DNA from: an uncultured archaeon
GTDB taxonomy: Archaea; Iainarchaeota; Iainarchaeia; Iainarchaeales; 0-14-0-20-30-16
Assembly (NCBI GenBank): GCA_964565125.1
Contig: CAZMCX010000037.1
Span: 1-7,391, forward strand
DNA length: 7,391 nucleotides
Direction of reading: 5' to 3'
The notes beneath the pieces are model-generated. The model made no database searches. It was not told the origin of the DNA and worked only from the letters and a program-made list of their open reading frames with translations. A program made the position numbers and the translations under genes. This document shows positions 1,554-7,391 of this stretch, piece after piece (position 1 is the stretch's first letter; each line of letters begins with the position of its first letter).

Positions 1554-2573
1554 ATGAGAAAAAAATCACCAGTTATAATTAAAACAATATTTGTCTTTAT
1601 AATATTAATCATTGTTCTTGCCTTTGCAGTATACAAAAATACACATTCTGAACCAACAGAATCCCAAGATACTTTAATACAATCAAAAACAGGAAATATA
1701 CAAGTTTATTTTTGTCCAGAAGACTGCAAAGACATAAACACACTTTTCAAAGATATCAATGAGTTCTACTGCTCAATATATGACATAGAGTATTCTTGGT
1801 TCTGGAATAAAGCAAAGTCTCTTTATGATTCCAATAAACCAGTTATAATTATCACAGACAATGAACAGCTTACAAACAACTTCAAAAAGCTCGACTTGCC
1901 GGTTCTACAAGATATCAATTATGCCTACTCATCAGGCTTCCTAAAAAAAGACAAATATTCCGGCTATATGCACAATAAATTCTGTGCCTTTGGAAACTAT
2001 CTTCTAATAGGAAGCAAGAATTTCAGTAACACATCCAATTATGACAATTTCATTCTATTAGAAAACAAAGAACTTTCTGAAATCGCAAAAGAAGAAATAT
2101 TAGAACAATATTCAGGAACATTTAACAAAGGAGAAAAATCTCCTGCCCAAACAGGATACCTACAAATATACTTCTGCCCAGAAGATAACTGTGAGTCAAA
2201 ATATCTAGAACTTTTAGAAACCGCAAAAGAAAGAATCCATTGTGAGTTCTTTTCTATGACCTTAAACAGCCTTTCTCAAGCAATGCTAAGCAAAGCAGGA
2301 CAAGGGGTGGATTTAAAAGTTCTATTTGAAAAATCCCAGATAAGTCAATATTCCCAGCTCACCACTTTATTTGCATATGCAAAAAAGAATACAAAAGGTT
2401 ACATCCACAACAAGTTCTGCATAATCGACGATACAGTTATCACAGGATCCCTAAATCCATCAAAGAACGGCACTACCAAGAATGATGAATCAATAATCAT
2501 AATCCAAGACCCCAAGATTGCTGAGATCTACGAGAACAAGTTCCAAGAGCATTGGATTAAACTGGTTGAATAG
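1554..2573 (+). CDS. membrane-anchored phospholipase D superfamily protein with two Nuc-like HKD domains (nuclease or phospholipid-acting)
   Basis: 339-aa ORF with ATG start and TAG stop. N-terminal hydrophobic helix VIIKTIFVFIILIIVLAFAVY. There are two HKD motifs. HNKFCAFGNYLLIGSKN has its His codon at 1971-1973 and Gly in place of the motif Asp. HNKFCIIDDTVITGSLN has its His codon at 2406-2408. Each half opens with YFCPED(x)C, indicating an internal duplication. Confidence 0.9.
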   Translation: MRKKSPVIIKTIFVFIILIIVLAFAVYKNTHSEPTESQDTLIQSKTGNIQVYFCPEDCKDINTLFKDINEFYCSIYDIEYSWFWNKAKSLYDSNKPVIIITDNEQLTNNFKKLDLPVLQDINYAYSSGFLKKDKYSGYMHNKFCAFGNYLLIGSKNFSNTSNYDNFILLENKELSEIAKEEILEQYSGTFNKGEKSPAQTGYLQIYFCPEDNCESKYLELLETAKERIHCEFFSMTLNSLSQAMLSKAGQGVDLKVLFEKSQISQYSQLTTLFAYAKKNTKGYIHNKFCIIDDTVITGSLNPSKNGTTKNDESIIIIQDPKIAEIYENKFQEHWIKLVE

Positions 2574-2623
2574 GAGGTCAAATTTTACCCAAGGCCCCTT
2601 TGTTTTGGTCCTACCTGCTTCAG

Positions 2624-2839
2624 TTATTTCTTCTTGGCAATCACAAATAAGTGCTCAAAGTTCCATTCTGCTTTAGAAACTGGTTTTCTTTTGTGTTTTT
2701 CTACAATACAAAATCCTGTCTTTTTTAACAAGCCCCCAATTTCTTCCAGATCCATTACATTCAAAAAAGTTTTTTCATCTAGTTTAAGGGGCTCTGTTAA
2801 AAAGATCTCTTCTGGCTTTCCGCACGGGGATGATTTTTT
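2624..2839 (-). pseudogene. C-terminal remnant of a class I SAM-dependent methyltransferase-like gene (no usable start, N-terminal two thirds absent)
   Basis: A 71-codon stop-free frame on the - strand: KKSSPCGKPEEIFLTEPLKLDEKTFLNVMDLEEIGGLLKKTGFCIVEKHKRKPVSKAEWNFEHLFVIAKKK, then TAA at 2626-2624. The segment F-x-x-x-(D/E)L-x-x-LL-x-x-xGF-x-IV followed by a short basic tail is the usual C-terminus of Methyltransf_11/25-type enzymes. No SAM-binding GxGxG region lies upstream. The frame overlaps the end of the SPASM fragment. Confidence 0.3.
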
Positions 2840-3083
2840 CTAGAAAATATTGTATTTTCCTTTTCCTAAACAAATCACATCCAGATAGGCTTTTTTCTAA
2901 TCGTAATGCCTTTGCTCGGCAACCACCTGTACAAATATTTTGTAGACTACATTTAGAACACAGAGAATTTAGATCTAATAAAGCAGTTTTAAATTTAAAT
3001 TGGCCTACAAAATTTATTTTTTTATTGTCTCTTTGTAAACCGATTTTTCTTTTTTGGCAGATAATGATTTTAAAAAAACGCAA
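2784..3083 (-). pseudogene. orphan SPASM-domain fragment of a radical SAM peptide maturase (no radical SAM core attached)
   Basis: 99-codon ORF starting at TTG; the frame opens only at 3089 after a TAA. It contains C42-x2-C45-x5-C51-x3-C55 (CSKCSLQNICTGGC, nt 2919-2960) and then C69 after a 13-residue gap. That is the CX2CX5CX3C-gap-C half of the SPASM seven-Cys motif. No CxxxCxxC or GGE lies upstream because the Nudix gene ends 27 nt away. Confidence 0.6.
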
Positions 3084-3110
3084 TAGGCGTTAAATTCTTC
3101 TTCAACAATA

Positions 3111-3992
3111 TCACATATTATTTTTAACTCTTTTTTTTGCATAATAAGACCTCAAAAGTTTATTTGTTGCACCAAATATTCGTAATTTGGGATTATAATA
3201 TTGCCATTCGTCTATTTCTGTTGTAGGTACTTGAGGCAATTTACTAATATCAACTAAATACACTTTTACTTTCGCACCACAAGTGCCTGCTTTAATTTGT
3301 TGTAATATGGGCTTATCATATAAAAAGGTTCCAATAAGCTTTGTAGTGCCAATGTCTTCTACTGCCAGCCCAACTTCTTCCCGTATTTCTCGTTTTAGCG
3401 CTTGCTCATCGGACTCATTTTTCTCTATTCCGCCATGCAAGACATCAAAAAAAGGCAACCCAGGCTTACATACAAGCAAATCTTTACCTTTATATCTTAA
3501 CAAAGCACCAATTGTAGATCTATAAGACAATGATTTTAAATAGTTATAACTTAATGCAATTTGATAGCCCTGTGCGATAAAAAAGGGATTGTTTGTTTCA
3601 GTATACCTATTTTGTTTTTCAAAGTCATATTTTTTCAGCAGGGACCTCAAATTTAATAAGTTATAATATAATTGTTCTGAATTATTATAAAATAGAGGAA
3701 AATTCAAAAAAGCCAAATTTTTATGTTCTCGGCAGATCACGGGTTTATGTGCATAAATAAAATTAGTCAGTGTTGAACTATTTGTTAAAGCTTTTAATGT
3801 CACTACCCCCACATCAACCGACTCTATAAACTTACAATATAAATTAAGGTCTGATTTCAAAATTTTTATATCAATAAGACCTGAACGAATATAAGTTAAA
3901 ATTTTTTTTTCATATTCTTGGCGATCAGGACTTACTCTGTCAGGCCCACTTGCATATCTTGAATACTTTTTATTTTTAGAAATATCCGTCAA
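3111..3992 (-). CDS. Nudix hydrolase with an unassigned ~155-aa N-terminal region
   Basis: 293-aa ORF. Perfect Nudix box G-x5-E-x7-R-E-U-x-E-E-x-G-U: GGIEKNESDEQALKREIREEVGL (residues 187-209, nt 3366-3434). The start is uncertain: the ORF opens with TTG at 3992, has no internal ATG and no convincing SD. TGA stop. Confidence 0.8.
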   Translation of the reverse strand: MTDISKNKKYSRYASGPDRVSPDRQEYEKKILTYIRSGLIDIKILKSDLNLYCKFIESVDVGVVTLKALTNSSTLTNFIYAHKPVICREHKNLAFLNFPLFYNNSEQLYYNLLNLRSLLKKYDFEKQNRYTETNNPFFIAQGYQIALSYNYLKSLSYRSTIGALLRYKGKDLLVCKPGLPFFDVLHGGIEKNESDEQALKREIREEVGLAVEDIGTTKLIGTFLYDKPILQQIKAGTCGAKVKVYLVDISKLPQVPTTEIDEWQYYNPKLRIFGATNKLLRSYYAKKRVKNNM

Positions 3993-4922
3993 ATCGTCTT
4001 TTATCTAACCCCCAATACCTAAATAAAATGAATATAAAAATATCGCTTTTTCAAGTTTTTTCTTTTTTCTTTTTATTGTATTGTAAATCATCATATTTGC
4101 TAGTGCCCCGCTAGTAGTCTTAAGCATTGCAATTTTAAATAAGTCTTTTATATTAGATGATTTTTTTAACTTTTGCTTTTGTTCTAAATAAAAAGACCTC
4201 CAAAGGCAATAGTCATGATAGTATTTTAAGTGATGCGGTATTCCAAAAAATAAAAGTTACTTTTTGGAAATCAAATTTGGAAATAATTTTAAAGAAAAAG
4301 ACGGAATAATTTATCTTACAAAAGACAAATTAGATAAAAATAAGTTGCCTCTGGCAATATTTTTAATTTTTCCTGAAGAGTGTTTAAAATTAATTGAAAA
4401 AAATTAAAATCTGCAAAACTTATAATTGTTATGTATAGATAAAGGGTTTTTGCGAAAAAGTGTTCTTTGAAGCAAAACTTTTTAATTTATGTAGTAACTC
4501 CTAATCACAAGTTCCATTTATTCTTTTCGCTTACTTTTCTTAACATAGAGGTTAATTTTAGTAAGGTTTGTTTCACAAATCTTTCTCCAGATTGCACAGC
4601 CCCCAAAAAATTAAACTTCACTTTCACATCCTGCGAGTCTGTAAAGATTTGGTTTCAATTATTTGGATTAATAACATTTGTAGAAACTAAAGAAACAGAA
4701 AAACAAATTGGCAAAATAGTTATTAATAGAATAAGAAATAATTATAATTTCCCTTTAAAACACATAATATGAAATAGTTATATAAAATATATAAGCTTTA
4801 GCTTTATTTTTTTAATTTGGCGCCATTTTATTTTGTTTCTTTAAAATCAGTAGGGTAAGAAAAAATACCTTTTGTTTATGGAACTATTTTTAAACTAAAC
4901 CAGTCTATATTTTTGTGATATT

Positions 4923-5246
4923 ATGATTAAATATTTGAAAGGAGTTGCAGCAAGTAAAGGTATAGTAACTGGTCCATGTAAAATAATAACTTCTCTCTCA
5001 GATTTGTCCAAAATAAAAAAGGGGGATATACTAGTAACCAGTATGACTATTCCAGATTACCTTCCTGCTATGTCTATTTGTTCAGCTATAATTACTGATG
5101 AAGGGGGTTTATTGTGCCATGCTGCGATAGTTTCAAGAGAGTTTAATATTCCTTGCATTGTAGCAACAAAAAGAGCCACAAAAATTTTAAAAGACAACCA
5201 AATAGTTATTGTTAGGGCAAATGATGGAATAATACAGTTATTTTAA
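4923..5246 (+). CDS. stand-alone PEP-utilising enzyme mobile (swivel phosphohistidine) domain protein
   Basis: The 107-aa ORF (ATG start, TAA stop) aligns end to end with the central domain of PEP synthase/PPDK. Matching segments are LKGVAASKGIVTGPCKII, GDILVTSMTIPDY, and AIITDEGGLLCHAAIVSREFNIPCIV with the phospho-acceptor His66 (nt 5118-5120). The usual T-S before the His is L-C here. No ATP-grasp (PPDK_N) or PEP/pyruvate-binding domain is encoded in the window. Confidence 0.85.
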   Translation: MIKYLKGVAASKGIVTGPCKIITSLSDLSKIKKGDILVTSMTIPDYLPAMSICSAIITDEGGLLCHAAIVSREFNIPCIVATKRATKILKDNQIVIVRANDGIIQLF

Positions 5247-5262
5247 TTTAAAACATGAAATG

Positions 5263-5769
5263 TCATCTCCAAAAAGATTCCCCTAATTTAATAGTTATTT
5301 TCCTTTGTTTATTTAGTTCTAAAAATTTAGTTAAATATAACTCTTCTTTTACAGATAATACCTGATCTGTTTCTTTTGCACGTCCAATATTTCTTAAAGG
5401 TGATGCTTTAAAAGAATCAACTCCTAAAGATTCTGCAAGGCCAATCATTTCATCTAATTCATTAATATTTGTTTTACTTATTGTTGCTTGCCACATTACG
5501 GGTATTTTTACAGATAATATATTTTTCAGACCGTGAATAGCTTTATCAAAAGAGCCAGGTACTCCTCTCAAATAATCATGAGTAGAGGGCTTAGCACCAT
5601 CAATACTTATTTTTATGGCAGATACTCCCGCAGTTTTTAATTTTTTTGCGATGCTTTTTGAAATTAGGGTTCCATTAGAAAACATTTCTGTTTTAAAATT
5701 TTTAGAAAATAGCTTGACAATTTTAAACCAATTCTGTGCTGATAATGGCTCCCCTCCAGTAATAATCAC
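5263..5769 (-). CDS. radical SAM enzyme, C-terminal part of the TIM barrel (downstream half of the same frame-disrupted gene); no SPASM/twitch domain, no Cys at all
   Basis: The track start is GTG at 5769, but the frame is open further upstream. Motifs: IITGGEPL (the GGE SAM-binding motif), FSNGTL, KISIDG, THDYLRGVPGSFDKA, NIGRAKE. Reading one extra A in the tract joins both parts as ...IVDFLKKLGNPTVIITGGEPL..., 301 aa in total. Confidence 0.85.
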   Translation of the reverse strand: MIITGGEPLSAQNWFKIVKLFSKNFKTEMFSNGTLISKSIAKKLKTAGVSAIKISIDGAKPSTHDYLRGVPGSFDKAIHGLKNILSVKIPVMWQATISKTNINELDEMIGLAESLGVDSFKASPLRNIGRAKETDQVLSVKEELYLTKFLELNKQRKITIKLGESFWR

Positions 5770-6167
5770 AGTTGGATTTCCAAGTTTTTTAAAAAATCTA
5801 CAATTCTACTTGCTTTTTTAAAACTTAAATCAGTAGTATGTTGTAATCCTGAGTTATTATAACAGCTTAAACAATTCAAATTACATTTTTTAGTAATTTC
5901 TAAATAAATAATTCCGTCAAATGGTTGTTGTTTTTTTAAAGAAATTATTTTTTTAAAAAGGTAATTATGATCCAATTTATCAATTATTTGTTCCTTTTCC
6001 AAAACTGCTAAATCAAGAGAGTTAATTTTTTTTGAGTTATTTGATAAAAAGGCAATTATTTTATCACTGCAAAAAAATTGGGTATTTTTTAACAAATTAA
6101 CTATAATACCCTGTCCCCTAATTTTCCAGAATACTATTCCAGGCCTTAAATTTTGTTTTTGCTTCAT
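5766..6167 (-). CDS. radical SAM enzyme, N-terminal part: RRE-like extension plus CxxxCxxC cluster motif (upstream half of a frame-disrupted gene)
   Basis: ATG at 6167 with GGAG (6178-6175) 7 nt upstream. ITKKCNLNCLSCY gives C95-x3-C99-x2-C102 (nt 5862-5885). About 90 residues precede it, with a strand/strand/strand/helix pattern resembling a PqqD-type RRE. The ORF ends in IVDFLKNLEIQL*, just after a T6A6 tract. Confidence 0.85.
   Translation of the reverse strand: MKQKQNLRPGIVFWKIRGQGIIVNLLKNTQFFCSDKIIAFLSNNSKKINSLDLAVLEKEQIIDKLDHNYLFKKIISLKKQQPFDGIIYLEITKKCNLNCLSCYNNSGLQHTTDLSFKKASRIVDFLKNLEIQL
5784..5796 (-). other. T6A6 homopolymer tract / in-phase A_AAA_AAC heptamer at the radical SAM frame break
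   Basis: The - strand reads GAT TTT TTA AAA AAC TTG in the upstream frame. The downstream frame is reached by a -1 shift, or by one extra A/T in the tract. The heptamer A AAA AAC (5790-5784) is in the X_XXY_YYZ phase. Confidence 0.7.
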
Positions 6168-7089
6168 CTAGTTTCTCCAAATTAAATTCCATTCTATATT
6201 TAGTTAATTTTCGCTTAGCTTTATTTAAAAATTTATCTATTGGCAGATATAATCCCATTTTATTTGTTTTTGCAAATCCATCCAAAATCTCAAAATATAA
6301 TCTTAATTGATTTTTATTAGTTTCTATTCCAGATATATCTTTCCATTTTTTTAACTGAATGAATAATTGTGCTAACTGCTTAAAATCACTTGTAACACAG
6401 GCTATTGATTGATGTTTTTTAAAAATAAGATTATGTTCTTTAACCTGTTGCAGTAATCTAACTGCGGGAAGAAACTGAAAATAATTCATGTTAAAAAGAT
6501 TTAGATAGTTCCTAAACTCAGCAGAATTCTTTAAATTAGTTAGTGAATATAATTTTTTTAATTCTAGTTCAACTTCTTGCATTTTTGAATCATTAAAAAG
6601 ATCTTTAACTACCAATAAGTTACATACTGCCAAGCGTATGTCTTTGTTTAACATAATTTTTTTTGCTATTAAAAATCTTTTTGTCAAAATAGAATGAAAA
6701 TTTAAATCCAAGTTTGAGAGAAAAATTAATTCATCTATATTGTGTAATTTTGCATAATCTTTTATCTTTGTAATAAGTTTATGCTCAATAATGCCCTCAT
6801 CAATTACCTGATTAAATAATTGAGAATAACCATAAACTAAAACAATTGAATTTATTATTAAATTGTTATAATCTTCTAGATTTGAAGATTTTATTTTATT
6901 AACTATTTTTTCTAATTCTATGCCTGTTTGAATAGCTATTAAGCCATATTTATCTATTAGTGATGGATTTACATCCGAATTATTAAAACAAGAAAAAAAA
7001 GATATTACAAAATCATTAAAATCTGGGGAAATTTTTGACAAGTTTTCAAAAATGCGATTTGCTACGGCGTCATTACAAATTTTTAACAT
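6118..7089 (-). CDS. hypothetical, predominantly alpha-helical 323-aa protein; candidate accessory protein of the radical SAM locus
   Basis: Long ORF with ATG start at 7089, 14 nt after the small-peptide stop, and TAG stop at 6118. It overlaps the radical SAM start by 50 nt. Composition is Leu/Ile/Lys/Asn-rich and helical-looking. I can find no catalytic or cofactor motif (no HExxH, P-loop or Cys cluster). Confidence 0.7.
   Translation of the reverse strand: MLKICNDAVANRIFENLSKISPDFNDFVISFFSCFNNSDVNPSLIDKYGLIAIQTGIELEKIVNKIKSSNLEDYNNLIINSIVLVYGYSQLFNQVIDEGIIEHKLITKIKDYAKLHNIDELIFLSNLDLNFHSILTKRFLIAKKIMLNKDIRLAVCNLLVVKDLFNDSKMQEVELELKKLYSLTNLKNSAEFRNYLNLFNMNYFQFLPAVRLLQQVKEHNLIFKKHQSIACVTSDFKQLAQLFIQLKKWKDISGIETNKNQLRLYFEILDGFAKTNKMGLYLPIDKFLNKAKRKLTKYRMEFNLEKLDEAKTKFKAWNSILEN
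6175..6178 (-). promoter_or_regulatory. Shine-Dalgarno (GGAG) of the radical SAM gene, embedded in the 3' end of the 323-aa ORF
   Basis: The - strand reads TTGGAGAAACTAGATG, placing GGAG 7 nt before ATG 6167. Confidence 0.5.
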
Positions 7090-7103
7090 AACTGCACGAT
7101 CTT

Positions 7104-7253
7104 TTATTTACACCAACTACATGGACCAGCATAACCTTTTCCAAATGCTTTAATCCAAGTATCATCAAAATATACTTTTTCTATATTACGGGGTATTTTA
7201 TTTTCTTCTATTATTTTTTTATTTACTTTTTTCTTTTCCATTATCGCCCTCAT
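7104..7253 (-). CDS. 49-aa candidate RiPP precursor peptide (not in the ORF track)
   Basis: ATG at 7253 preceded by GAGGTG with a 5-nt spacer. Translation: MRAIMEKKKVNKKIIEENKIPRNIEKVYFDDTWIKAFGKGYAGPCSWCK, with TAA at 7106-7104. It is the first gene of the same-strand radical SAM operon. A second in-frame ATG at 7241 (MEKKK...) is an alternative start. Confidence 0.55.
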   Translation of the reverse strand: MRAIMEKKKVNKKIIEENKIPRNIEKVYFDDTWIKAFGKGYAGPCSWCK

Positions 7254-7258
7254 ATCTT

Positions 7259-7264
7259 CACCTC
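7259..7264 (-). promoter_or_regulatory. Shine-Dalgarno (GAGGTG) of the 49-aa ORF
   Basis: The - strand reads AATAATGAGGTGAAGATATG. This is the strongest anti-SD complement in the window and the spacing is optimal. Confidence 0.6.
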
Positions 7265-7273
7265 ATTATTAAA

Positions 7274-7391
7274 TTAAATATTATCTGCTACCCCACCACC
7301 AAGCACAAAATCTATGTTAAATCTAGGTTTTATTGTGGTTTGATTTATCTTTAGAAAAATAGAATTTGCTCTCTGAATAGAATAGCAAAGT
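7274..7391 (-). CDS. possible 3' end of an upstream gene running off the window (partial)
   Basis: One - strand frame is stop-free from the window edge: ...LCYSIQRANSIFLKINQTTIKPRFNIDFVLGGGVADNI, TAA at 7276-7274. It ends 20 nt before the peptide ATG, which is operon-like spacing. Only 39 codons are visible and there is no recognisable motif. Confidence 0.25.
   Translation of the reverse strand, partial: LCYSIQRANSIFLKINQTTIKPRFNIDFVLGGGVADNI

Follow-up and report, generated by a model that had tools for sequence, protein, structure and literature searches.

The stretch of DNA analysed here (7,391 nucleotides (nt) from an uncultured archaeon, hereafter the window) carries on its minus strand the genes of a 49-amino-acid (aa) peptide, of a 323-aa protein and of a radical S-adenosylmethionine (SAM) enzyme, which we call rSAM1, and on its plus strand a gene of the phosphoenolpyruvate (PEP)-utilizers family. 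We think it probable that these are the remains of a gene cluster of DPANN archaea that resembles a pathway for peptides made by ribosomes and modified after translation (RiPPs), and that a phosphotransfer mechanism, proposed below, belongs to it. The peptide, 323-aa and PEP-utilizers genes are intact, while rSAM1 is frameshifted and truncated at residue 301, with its tail lying behind inserted or rearranged DNA. Neither a second radical SAM gene with a SPASM domain (rSAM2) nor a gene of the ATP-grasp family PPDK_N was detected in the window by tblastn, and rSAM1 is broken; therefore, this copy most likely cannot make a mature product. The initial annotation had seen a RiPP locus here, and this has stood in part: a family of operons that combine a short peptide with a radical SAM enzyme does exist across several lineages, but the copy in the window is not an intact operon.

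The layout of the three minus-strand genes is the one originally described. The peptide gene (7253 to 7104), called from the list of open reading frames (ORFs) and from the homologous peptides that head related operons, is preceded by what reads as a Shine-Dalgarno-like GAGGTGA (7258-7264, minus strand), 4 nt before its ATG. After a spacer of 14 nt follows the 323-aa ORF (7089 to 6118), which overlaps by 50 nt the start of rSAM1, whose ATG at 6167 has its own GGAG at 6178-6175. The peptide consists of a variable leader rich in Lys and Glu and a conserved C-terminal core, YFDDTWIKAFGKGYAGPCSWCK. When the peptide was used as query against a database of 5.8 billion clusters only the self-match was retrieved, and homologous peptides were located instead among the ORFs upstream of rSAM1 homologues and with a degenerate DNA pattern search. 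In the contigs found in this way (contigs and proteins of other assemblies are given L and P numbers, respectively) the core follows the C-terminal pattern YF[DN]D[TA]W[IL]KAF[GA][KR][GN]Y[AS]GPCS..C. The peptides end in ...NIEKVYFDDTWIKAFGKGYAGPCSWCK in the window, L002 and L003, in ...SIRRIYFDDTWIKAFGRGYSGPCSWCV in L004-7 and L013 (Micrarchaeota MAS4.bin50), in ...SIKRIYFDDTWIKAFGRGYSGPCSWCK in L015, in ...FIRKAYFDDTWLKAFAKNYSGPCSGLCSS in L008-11, of which L014 (Micrarchaeota YP3.bin49) has a mutated form, in ...KKIYFNDAWIKAFGRNYSGPCSGLCNL in L018/19 and in ...IKRIYFNDAWIKAFGKNYSGPCSGKC in L022. A distant variant, L020, has a 41-aa Cys-rich ORF that ends in ...SRCQCSCTTTGPCPYCD.

Across these loci the leaders share no sequence relation and the differences within the core are mainly synonymous (12 synonymous and 5 non-synonymous changes over 22 codons between the window and L004), which therefore indicates a translated peptide under purifying selection. 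At least five other lineages of DPANN (Micrarchaeota and "Diapherotrites") have the same core at the head of radical SAM operons. In L004/L013 and L015 it lies immediately upstream of the radical SAM gene, while in L008, L018 and L022 the two are separated by a PEP-utilizers gene, with or without PPDK_N, and by the relative of the 323-aa gene. A conserved short ORF beside homologous radical SAM genes is thus what the relatives display, and the co-location of a conserved short precursor gene with a modifying enzyme across lineages, by which RiPP clusters are generically recognized, was found. Upstream of the peptide gene, at 7286-7378, the window and L003 differ by 12 substitutions and a 2-nt indel over 93 nt; in the coding region downstream they differ by only 4 substitutions and 1 indel over 1839 nt. 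The divergent stretch may mark a boundary of recombination, or a promoter that evolves fast.

All the motifs listed in the initial annotation for the radical SAM enzyme (CNLNCLSC, IITGGEPL, FSNGTL, KISIDG and THDYLRGVPGSFDKA) are present, but the single ORF from 6167 to 5263 in which they had been placed does not exist. The frame that begins at 6167 stops at a TGA at 5768-5766, and from IITGGEPL onward the sequence is read in another frame. The first piece (5766-6167, minus strand, 133 aa) contains an RRE-like N-terminal region (residues 1-85; RRE, RiPP recognition element) and CNLNCLSC, and the second (5263-5769, minus strand, 168 aa) extends from GGEPL to the end of the radical SAM core, with a stop after GESFWR and a match to PF04055 of 9e-12. 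The domain, typical of the radical SAM superfamily by its CxxxCxxC cluster motif (CNLNCLSC) and the SAM-binding GGEPL, is in this way divided over two frames. Adding one A gives a frame-repaired protein of 301 aa in which PF04055, the family expected from the beginning, is found with 2.2e-20 (73.9 bits vs a gathering threshold of 29.5). The site is a run of six A (A6, 5785-5790, minus strand), and an allele with seven (A7) restores the frame (DFLKKLGNPTVIITGGEPL). A7 and an open frame are found in L003, a contig from a Joint Genome Institute (JGI) metagenome that is 99% identical to the window, and the protein P0099, from an assembly in the European Nucleotide Archive, is the continuous 301-aa product of this allele. 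On the other hand, L012, a contig of a different JGI sample, shares A6 with the window, to which it aligns without gaps over 1651 nt, A6 is also found in P0100 and P0098, and the 133-aa and 168-aa pieces have been called in other assemblies. Both alleles occur in nature, and we take the break in rSAM1 to be a plain indel, a 1-nt deletion in the run of A.

Restoring the frame does not restore the enzyme. The repaired rSAM1 matches SPASM-type families (AhbD, NirJ, WgkB, StsB and others) over profile positions ~2-213 of ~340 only, and the description of the window ORF as a SPASM-type enzyme has to be abandoned: a SPASM domain requires seven Cys at the C-terminus of the same polypeptide (CX9-15GX4C ... 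CX2CX5CX3C ... C), and the ORF ends at residue 301. The homologues P0003, P0004 and P0007, with 437-445 aa and 49-58% identity across all 301 residues, carry the full pattern (CX12GX4C ... CX2CX5CX3C ... C). When rSAM1 homologues were compared with the window by tblastn, their residues 1-309 aligned to 6167-5266 and residues 381/392-431 to 2993-2841, while residues 310-380 had no counterpart in the window. The displaced tail (CSKCSLQNICTGGC...SLSGCDL; 2841-2993, minus strand, inside the ORF at 2784-3083) is 2.2 kb away from rSAM1, matches the SPASM model TIGR04085 with 6.7e-6 over positions 44-84 of 93 and holds the detached CX2CX5CX3C...C part of the pattern. Its end resembles the tail of rSAM1 (SLxGC[DN][LI]) and not that of rSAM2. 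The radical SAM gene of the window should be annotated as a disrupted gene and not as an active maturase.

The 323-aa protein (6118-7089, minus strand), known from its ORF and from full-length homologues that we refer to together as the 32x-aa family, had been put forward as one that could not be placed, and so it turned out. It had no family match in Pfam, NCBIfam, PADLOC, PHROGs or the sequences of the PDB. The AlphaFold2 model is all-helical, with 14 helices and high confidence (pLDDT, the predicted local distance difference test, 88.5; pTM, the predicted template modelling score, 0.87), and Foldseek gave no fold match to it in the PDB and BFVD (best PDB E = 0.59). The sole line in Pfam, Apo-VLDL-II with E = 0.027, is under threshold and was discarded. 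The family is extremely small: 5.8 billion clusters yielded 2 matches, and 1.84 billion proteins yielded 9 representatives. No member turned up in GTDB genomes or viral contigs, and a metagenome scan gave only one near-identical contig. The homologues align over the whole length, and F24, G87, Y88, N93, D97, G99, F199, F204, K250 and Y265 are near-invariant in the family alignment.

The 32x-aa gene overlaps the start of rSAM1 by 50 nt in the window, 59 nt in L001 and L018, 47 nt in L016, 62 nt in L022 and 1 nt in L008, and a cut ORF of L025, probably a further member of the family, overlaps it by 47 nt. However, its most constant neighbour is the PEP-utilizers gene rather than the radical SAM gene. 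The former is directly upstream of the 32x-aa gene in L008, L014, L018/19 and L020, and probably also in L001, and directly downstream of it in L023/24, two contigs of 2-3 kb with a 295-aa member of the family and no radical SAM gene or peptide; in L021/22 a PPDK_N gene stands between both. With PEP-utilizers nearby and the overlap with rSAM1, the 323-aa protein is therefore read as part of a phosphotransfer module coupled to rSAM1. The earlier suggestion that it is an accessory component of peptide maturation has survived insofar as it is an orphan whose gene, in several lineages, runs into that of the radical SAM enzyme, but the PEP-utilizers gene of the window, at 4923-5246, had been overlooked. 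The protein is a genuine orphan that is better described as the partner of a swivel-histidine protein.

This PEP-utilizers gene (4923-5246, plus strand) encodes a 107-aa protein that covers the phosphohistidine swivel domain completely (PF00391, 5.2e-24, positions 1-72 of 72), with the catalytic-His motif GGxxCHAAI in the sequence GGLLCHAAIVSRE. It is convergent with rSAM1 and inverted relative to the arrangement of its orthologues beside the 32x-aa gene. The protein is 55% identical to the orthologue in L008, and the best matches in the PDB are PEP synthase (7e-27) and rifampin phosphotransferase (RPH, 7e-17). PPDK_N, the ATP-grasp part absent from the window, is present in the orthologous operons of L008, L014 and L021/22.

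The most complete of these is L022, in which the order is precursor (46 aa), PEP-utilizers (111 aa), PPDK_N (309 aa), a 333-aa member of the 32x-aa family, rSAM1 (445 aa) and rSAM2, with its SPASM domain (463 aa). The same set is found in L008, where PPDK_N is the gene at the operon's 3' end, and across the intact clusters the precursor measures 46-62 aa. In L004/L013 rSAM1 and rSAM2 come after the precursor, and behind them lie an arginase-family gene, a gene for 118 aa, a third enzyme with SPASM and a GNAT gene. The surroundings of the clusters are archaeal, with genes for thermopsin, Rpr2, TFIIE, aIF2-alpha and prefoldin. The distant variant L020 (185-4580) combines PEP-utilizers, a 324-aa member of the 32x-aa family, the Cys-rich peptide already mentioned and a 288-aa unknown protein with a 489-aa radical SAM enzyme that has an N-terminal extension of 300 residues and with a separate 125-aa SPASM protein. 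In L015 (1770-5095) and L016 (6077-9128) a protein of 558-567 aa with a weak radical SAM match and GNAT acetyltransferases are encoded upstream of the peptide or the 32x-aa gene at a distance of a few kb, and perhaps the cluster extends as far as these genes.

The window is one of several decayed copies. In L014 (4658-4900) rSAM1 and rSAM2 have collapsed into an 80-aa fusion ORF and the peptide is mutated; in L015 (10001-11146) rSAM1 is truncated near residue 340 and the 62-aa precursor gene is intact; in L018/19 (L018, 1586-1920) rSAM1 is broken and there are stops in the leader; and in L021 (10941-11483), the same locus as L022, rSAM1 is in pieces and rSAM2 is gone. The 32x-aa and PEP-utilizers genes are intact in the decayed L014, L018 and L021, and L015 has neither of them.

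For the intact cluster we propose the following course. RRE-like N-terminal domains of the enzymes would bind the variable leader of the peptide, and the two radical SAM/SPASM enzymes would cross-link its conserved core. Two triplets, W-[IL]-K and F-[GA]-[KR], are conserved in this core, which also has a C-terminal Cys pair. Triceptide cyclophanes are defined by an aromatic1-X2-X3 motif (PMC11499958), which the triplets fit, and the candidate cross-links are aromatic-x-Lys/Arg cyclophanes at these triplets and/or thioethers from the Cys pair. PPDK_N, the swivel-histidine protein and the 32x-aa protein would together form a split enzyme of the PEP-synthase/rifampin-phosphotransferase type, in which the 32x-aa protein would hold the substrate that takes the phosphate from the phosphohistidine. 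That this substrate is the ribosomal peptide, phosphorylated or activated before or after cross-linking by a three-protein swivel-histidine phosphotransferase of which the 32x-aa protein is the peptide-holding subunit, is a tentative proposal that we put forward with considerable doubt.

The putative RRE at the N-terminus of rSAM1, claimed in the initial annotation, is plausible, judging from its predicted topology and from non-significant structural matches to RRE proteins. PF05402 (PqqD), which had been suggested as a possible hit, did not match the N-terminal 85-90 residues in Pfam, either in the window protein or in six homologues, and a PDB profile search for an RRE was negative as well. 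The AlphaFold2 model of the first 133 residues has low confidence (pLDDT 45.7) and consists of β(6-16), β(19-24), β(29-34), α(35-43), α(50-58) and α(67-80), that is, β1β2β3-α1α2α3, the order of an RRE.

Several observations weigh against the scheme as a whole. The top matches of Foldseek to that N-terminal model are the RRE proteins CteB, TbiB1, SkfB and SuiB, all non-significant (E >= 0.08). In NCBIfam, the best model for the full-length P0004 was AhbD with 138 bits vs a cut-off of 500, followed by WgkB with 131.8 vs 650. The curated cut-offs for the maturases WgkB, StsB, SkfB, AlbA, PapB, the KxxxW maturase, DynA, PqqE and MftC were not reached, with WgkB the highest-scoring of them, and by these sequence profiles rSAM1 and rSAM2 fall in no curated maturase family. 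The type of cross-link has been guessed from the core motifs. The 323-aa protein was also considered as a detached substrate domain of RPH, and this was rejected, as hmmsearch and hhalign against four RPH-type proteins were negative; the probability in hhalign was 0.2%, the lone match to a homologue of Bacillus cereus was a 9.6-bit stretch, and no homology to the domain with which RPH or its relatives bind their substrate was found. In L004/L013 the peptide is accompanied by both radical SAM genes but by no 32x-aa, PEP-utilizers or PPDK_N genes, and the phosphotransfer module is therefore optional. As to the decay of the window copy, a PPDK_N or rSAM2 gene might be located past position 7391, where the window ends, and the 301-aa protein of the A7 allele, even without SPASM, might keep some activity.

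There are other ways in which the disrupted gene could be explained. It is quite unlikely that the window holds an intact and working three-gene RiPP operon (peptide, 323-aa accessory protein and RRE-bearing SPASM-type enzyme) in which the frameshift is a sequencing error. The A7 allele with its continuous 301-aa ORF, the intact and conserved peptide and 323-aa genes and the RRE-compatible topology of the rSAM1 N-terminus are in agreement with this, but assemblies that are independent of one another agree on A6 (the window, L012, P0100 and P0098), and the A7 protein ends at residue 301 too, without the SPASM domain of all full-length homologues, whose counterpart is a fragment 2.2 kb off; besides, the second maturase is absent from the window. 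We give hardly any credit to a programmed -1 ribosomal frameshift at the zero-frame heptamer A_AAA_AAC (5791-5784) that would bridge the break and give DFLKNLGNPTVIITGGEPL. The site, tt_A_AAA_AAC, is indeed a canonical slippery heptamer in the right frame, and frameshifting on A-AAA-AAT has a precedent in archaea in the fucA1 gene of Sulfolobus. However, the sequence downstream folds no better than its shuffles (z = +0.57), the A7 allele requires no frameshift and the product would still be devoid of SPASM. The separation of rSAM1 into distant pieces might also be suspected to be an assembly chimera, as the contig is metagenomic and the window and L012 differ downstream of 4245, but the chance of this is very small. 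Between 5895 and 4245 the sequence of L012 is that of the window, below 4245 the two are unrelated, and L012 reproduces the junction between the rSAM1 stop and the PEP-utilizers gene. In addition, a separately assembled 5670-bp contig of 'Candidatus Diapherotrites archaeon' at NCBI (PIU02891-PIU02895) has GT4, PLD-like, Nudix and partial PEP-utilizers genes whose products match those of the window at >=90% identity, a gene set that brackets the SPASM remnant (the comparison was made by gene products). With both junctions seen again in other assemblies, the arrangement is therefore not taken as a chimera, and the region around 4245 is structurally variable between strains.

A different alternative concerns the 32x-aa protein, which might have no relation to the peptide and serve PEP-utilizers and PPDK_N on a small-molecule substrate, being merely in the same operon as the radical SAM gene. 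We regard this as unlikely. It would agree with the L023/L024 contigs, where the 295-aa member is paired with PEP-utilizers in the absence of a radical SAM gene or peptide, and with the persistence of the 32x-aa/PEP-utilizers pair in loci with decayed radical SAM genes (L014, L021 and the window). Nevertheless, the L023/L024 contigs span just 2-3 kb, the 32x-aa gene overlaps the start of rSAM1 by 47-62 nt in most lineages whose contig still has a radical SAM gene (L001, L016, L018, L022, the window and probably L025; 1 nt in L008), and wherever the peptide gene is on the contig (window, L008, L018 and L022) it heads the 32x-aa operon. L020 is an exception, with the peptide ORF and the 288-aa gene placed between the 32x-aa and radical SAM genes, but even this distant locus has a Cys-rich ...GPCPYCD peptide right behind the 324-aa gene.

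Among the known radical SAM/SPASM RiPP systems, the cluster is reminiscent of those of sactipeptides and ranthipeptides (CteB, SkfB, PapB) and of streptide (SuiB) in that a short precursor gene heads an operon of SPASM type, in the Cys pair of the core and in an N-terminal extension of rSAM1 of predicted β3-α3 topology. It differs from them in that the DPANN enzymes are below every curated cut-off and without a PqqD match in Pfam, in the new precursor family, in the host, a DPANN archaeon, and in that the intact clusters have two maturases and a PEP-synthase-like module, while the window copy is devoid of SPASM. With the cyclophane RiPPs (triceptides and the Trp-Lys cross-link of tryglysin made by WgkB) it shares the two core triplets (W-[IL]-K; F-[GA]-[KR]), and among NCBIfam models WgkB ranks second for full-length rSAM1; however, its score is 132 bits vs a cut-off of 650, the cross-link in the DPANN peptide is a candidate, and the triceptide and WgkB systems come from bacteria and lack PEP-synthase-like genes.

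In the rifampin phosphotransferases and PigC, an ATP-grasp domain loads the swivel histidine, from which the phosphate passes to a substrate held on a third domain; the layout of RPH is ATP-grasp, substrate domain and swivel. For the DPANN module this would be the most economical scheme. The likeness to PEP synthase, pyruvate phosphate dikinase (PPDK) and RPH is in the complete swivel domain with GGxxCHAAI of the 107-aa protein and in the PPDK_N-only protein that the relatives of the window locus add. The differences are that the DPANN parts would be three separate proteins, that PPDK_N is not in the window and that the candidate substrate part, the 32x-aa protein, resembles the central domain of RPH detectably neither in sequence nor in fold. 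A comparable split is found in a plasmid of B. cereus (NZ_CP045607.2; L028, 2411-5786), where a PPDK_N-only protein of 332 aa and a 538-aa 'PEP-utilizing enzyme' are encoded between nonribosomal peptide synthetase and thioesterase genes, i.e., a split PEP-synthase-like enzyme in a bacterial secondary-metabolite cluster.

The DNA between the two rSAM1 pieces comprises the inverted PEP-utilizers gene, ~900 nt of AT-rich DNA and a Nudix ORF. A mobile element was considered as the origin of this 2.2-kb interruption and rejected, as no convincing terminal repeats were found. There is a 15-nt inverted repeat at both rSAM1 breakpoints (2986-3000 and 5240-5254; GTTTTAAATTTAAAT / ATTTTAATTTAAAAC, 93% complementary), which is not better than 14 other AT-rich pairs and may be due to chance in AT-rich DNA. 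The Nudix ORF (3992 to 3111, minus strand) encodes 293 aa, with the Nudix domain in residues 158-268 only and an N-terminal part of 157 residues without assignment; in other assemblies its N-terminus has been called longer, with totals of 297 and 338 aa. Past the point where it diverges from the window, L012 has (at 1652-4148) the gene of a 440-aa AAA_14/DUF4143 ATPase. Just beyond the SPASM remnant, at 2624-2800 on the minus strand, a short frame with ...LKLDEKTFLNVMDLEEIGGLLKKTGFCIVEKHKRKP... resembles, as judged by eye, a class I methyltransferase at its C-terminal end, and would hence be another gene fragment. On the plus strand, the 339-aa protein at 1554-2573 has a hydrophobic N-terminal segment and two PLD-like domains (PF13091, 2.5e-27), and also matches the defence models DrmC (2.8e-13) and DpdK, as well as phrog_12711. 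A 72-aa ORF at 57-275, also on the plus strand, has two CxxC pairs, is zinc-ribbon-like and matches weakly DksA-like and HNH phage families. No tRNA or Rfam elements were found in the window.

Text searches of the literature retrieved no paper on this precursor or on the 32x-aa family, none that links PEP-utilizing enzymes to RiPPs and no characterised archaeal radical SAM RiPP of such a kind. Surveys report just generic ranthipeptide- or sactipeptide-type clusters in DPANN (PMC12144867, PMC12153355). Three features of this family stand out: the new conserved precursor, the two uncharacterised SPASM maturases and an orphan protein, helical throughout, that goes with a split PEP-synthase-like module. 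Should this module have the peptide as its substrate, it would represent a new activation chemistry for RiPP biosynthesis. Were our proposal true, an enzyme of the PEP-synthase/RPH type would have been recruited to RiPP biosynthesis, with a protein of new fold, in ultra-small DPANN archaea, within a cluster that natural populations repeatedly lose and rearrange. The independent decay seen in the window, L014, L015, L018/19 and L021 suggests that these genome-reduced, host-dependent archaea can do without the product, or that selection on it fluctuates.

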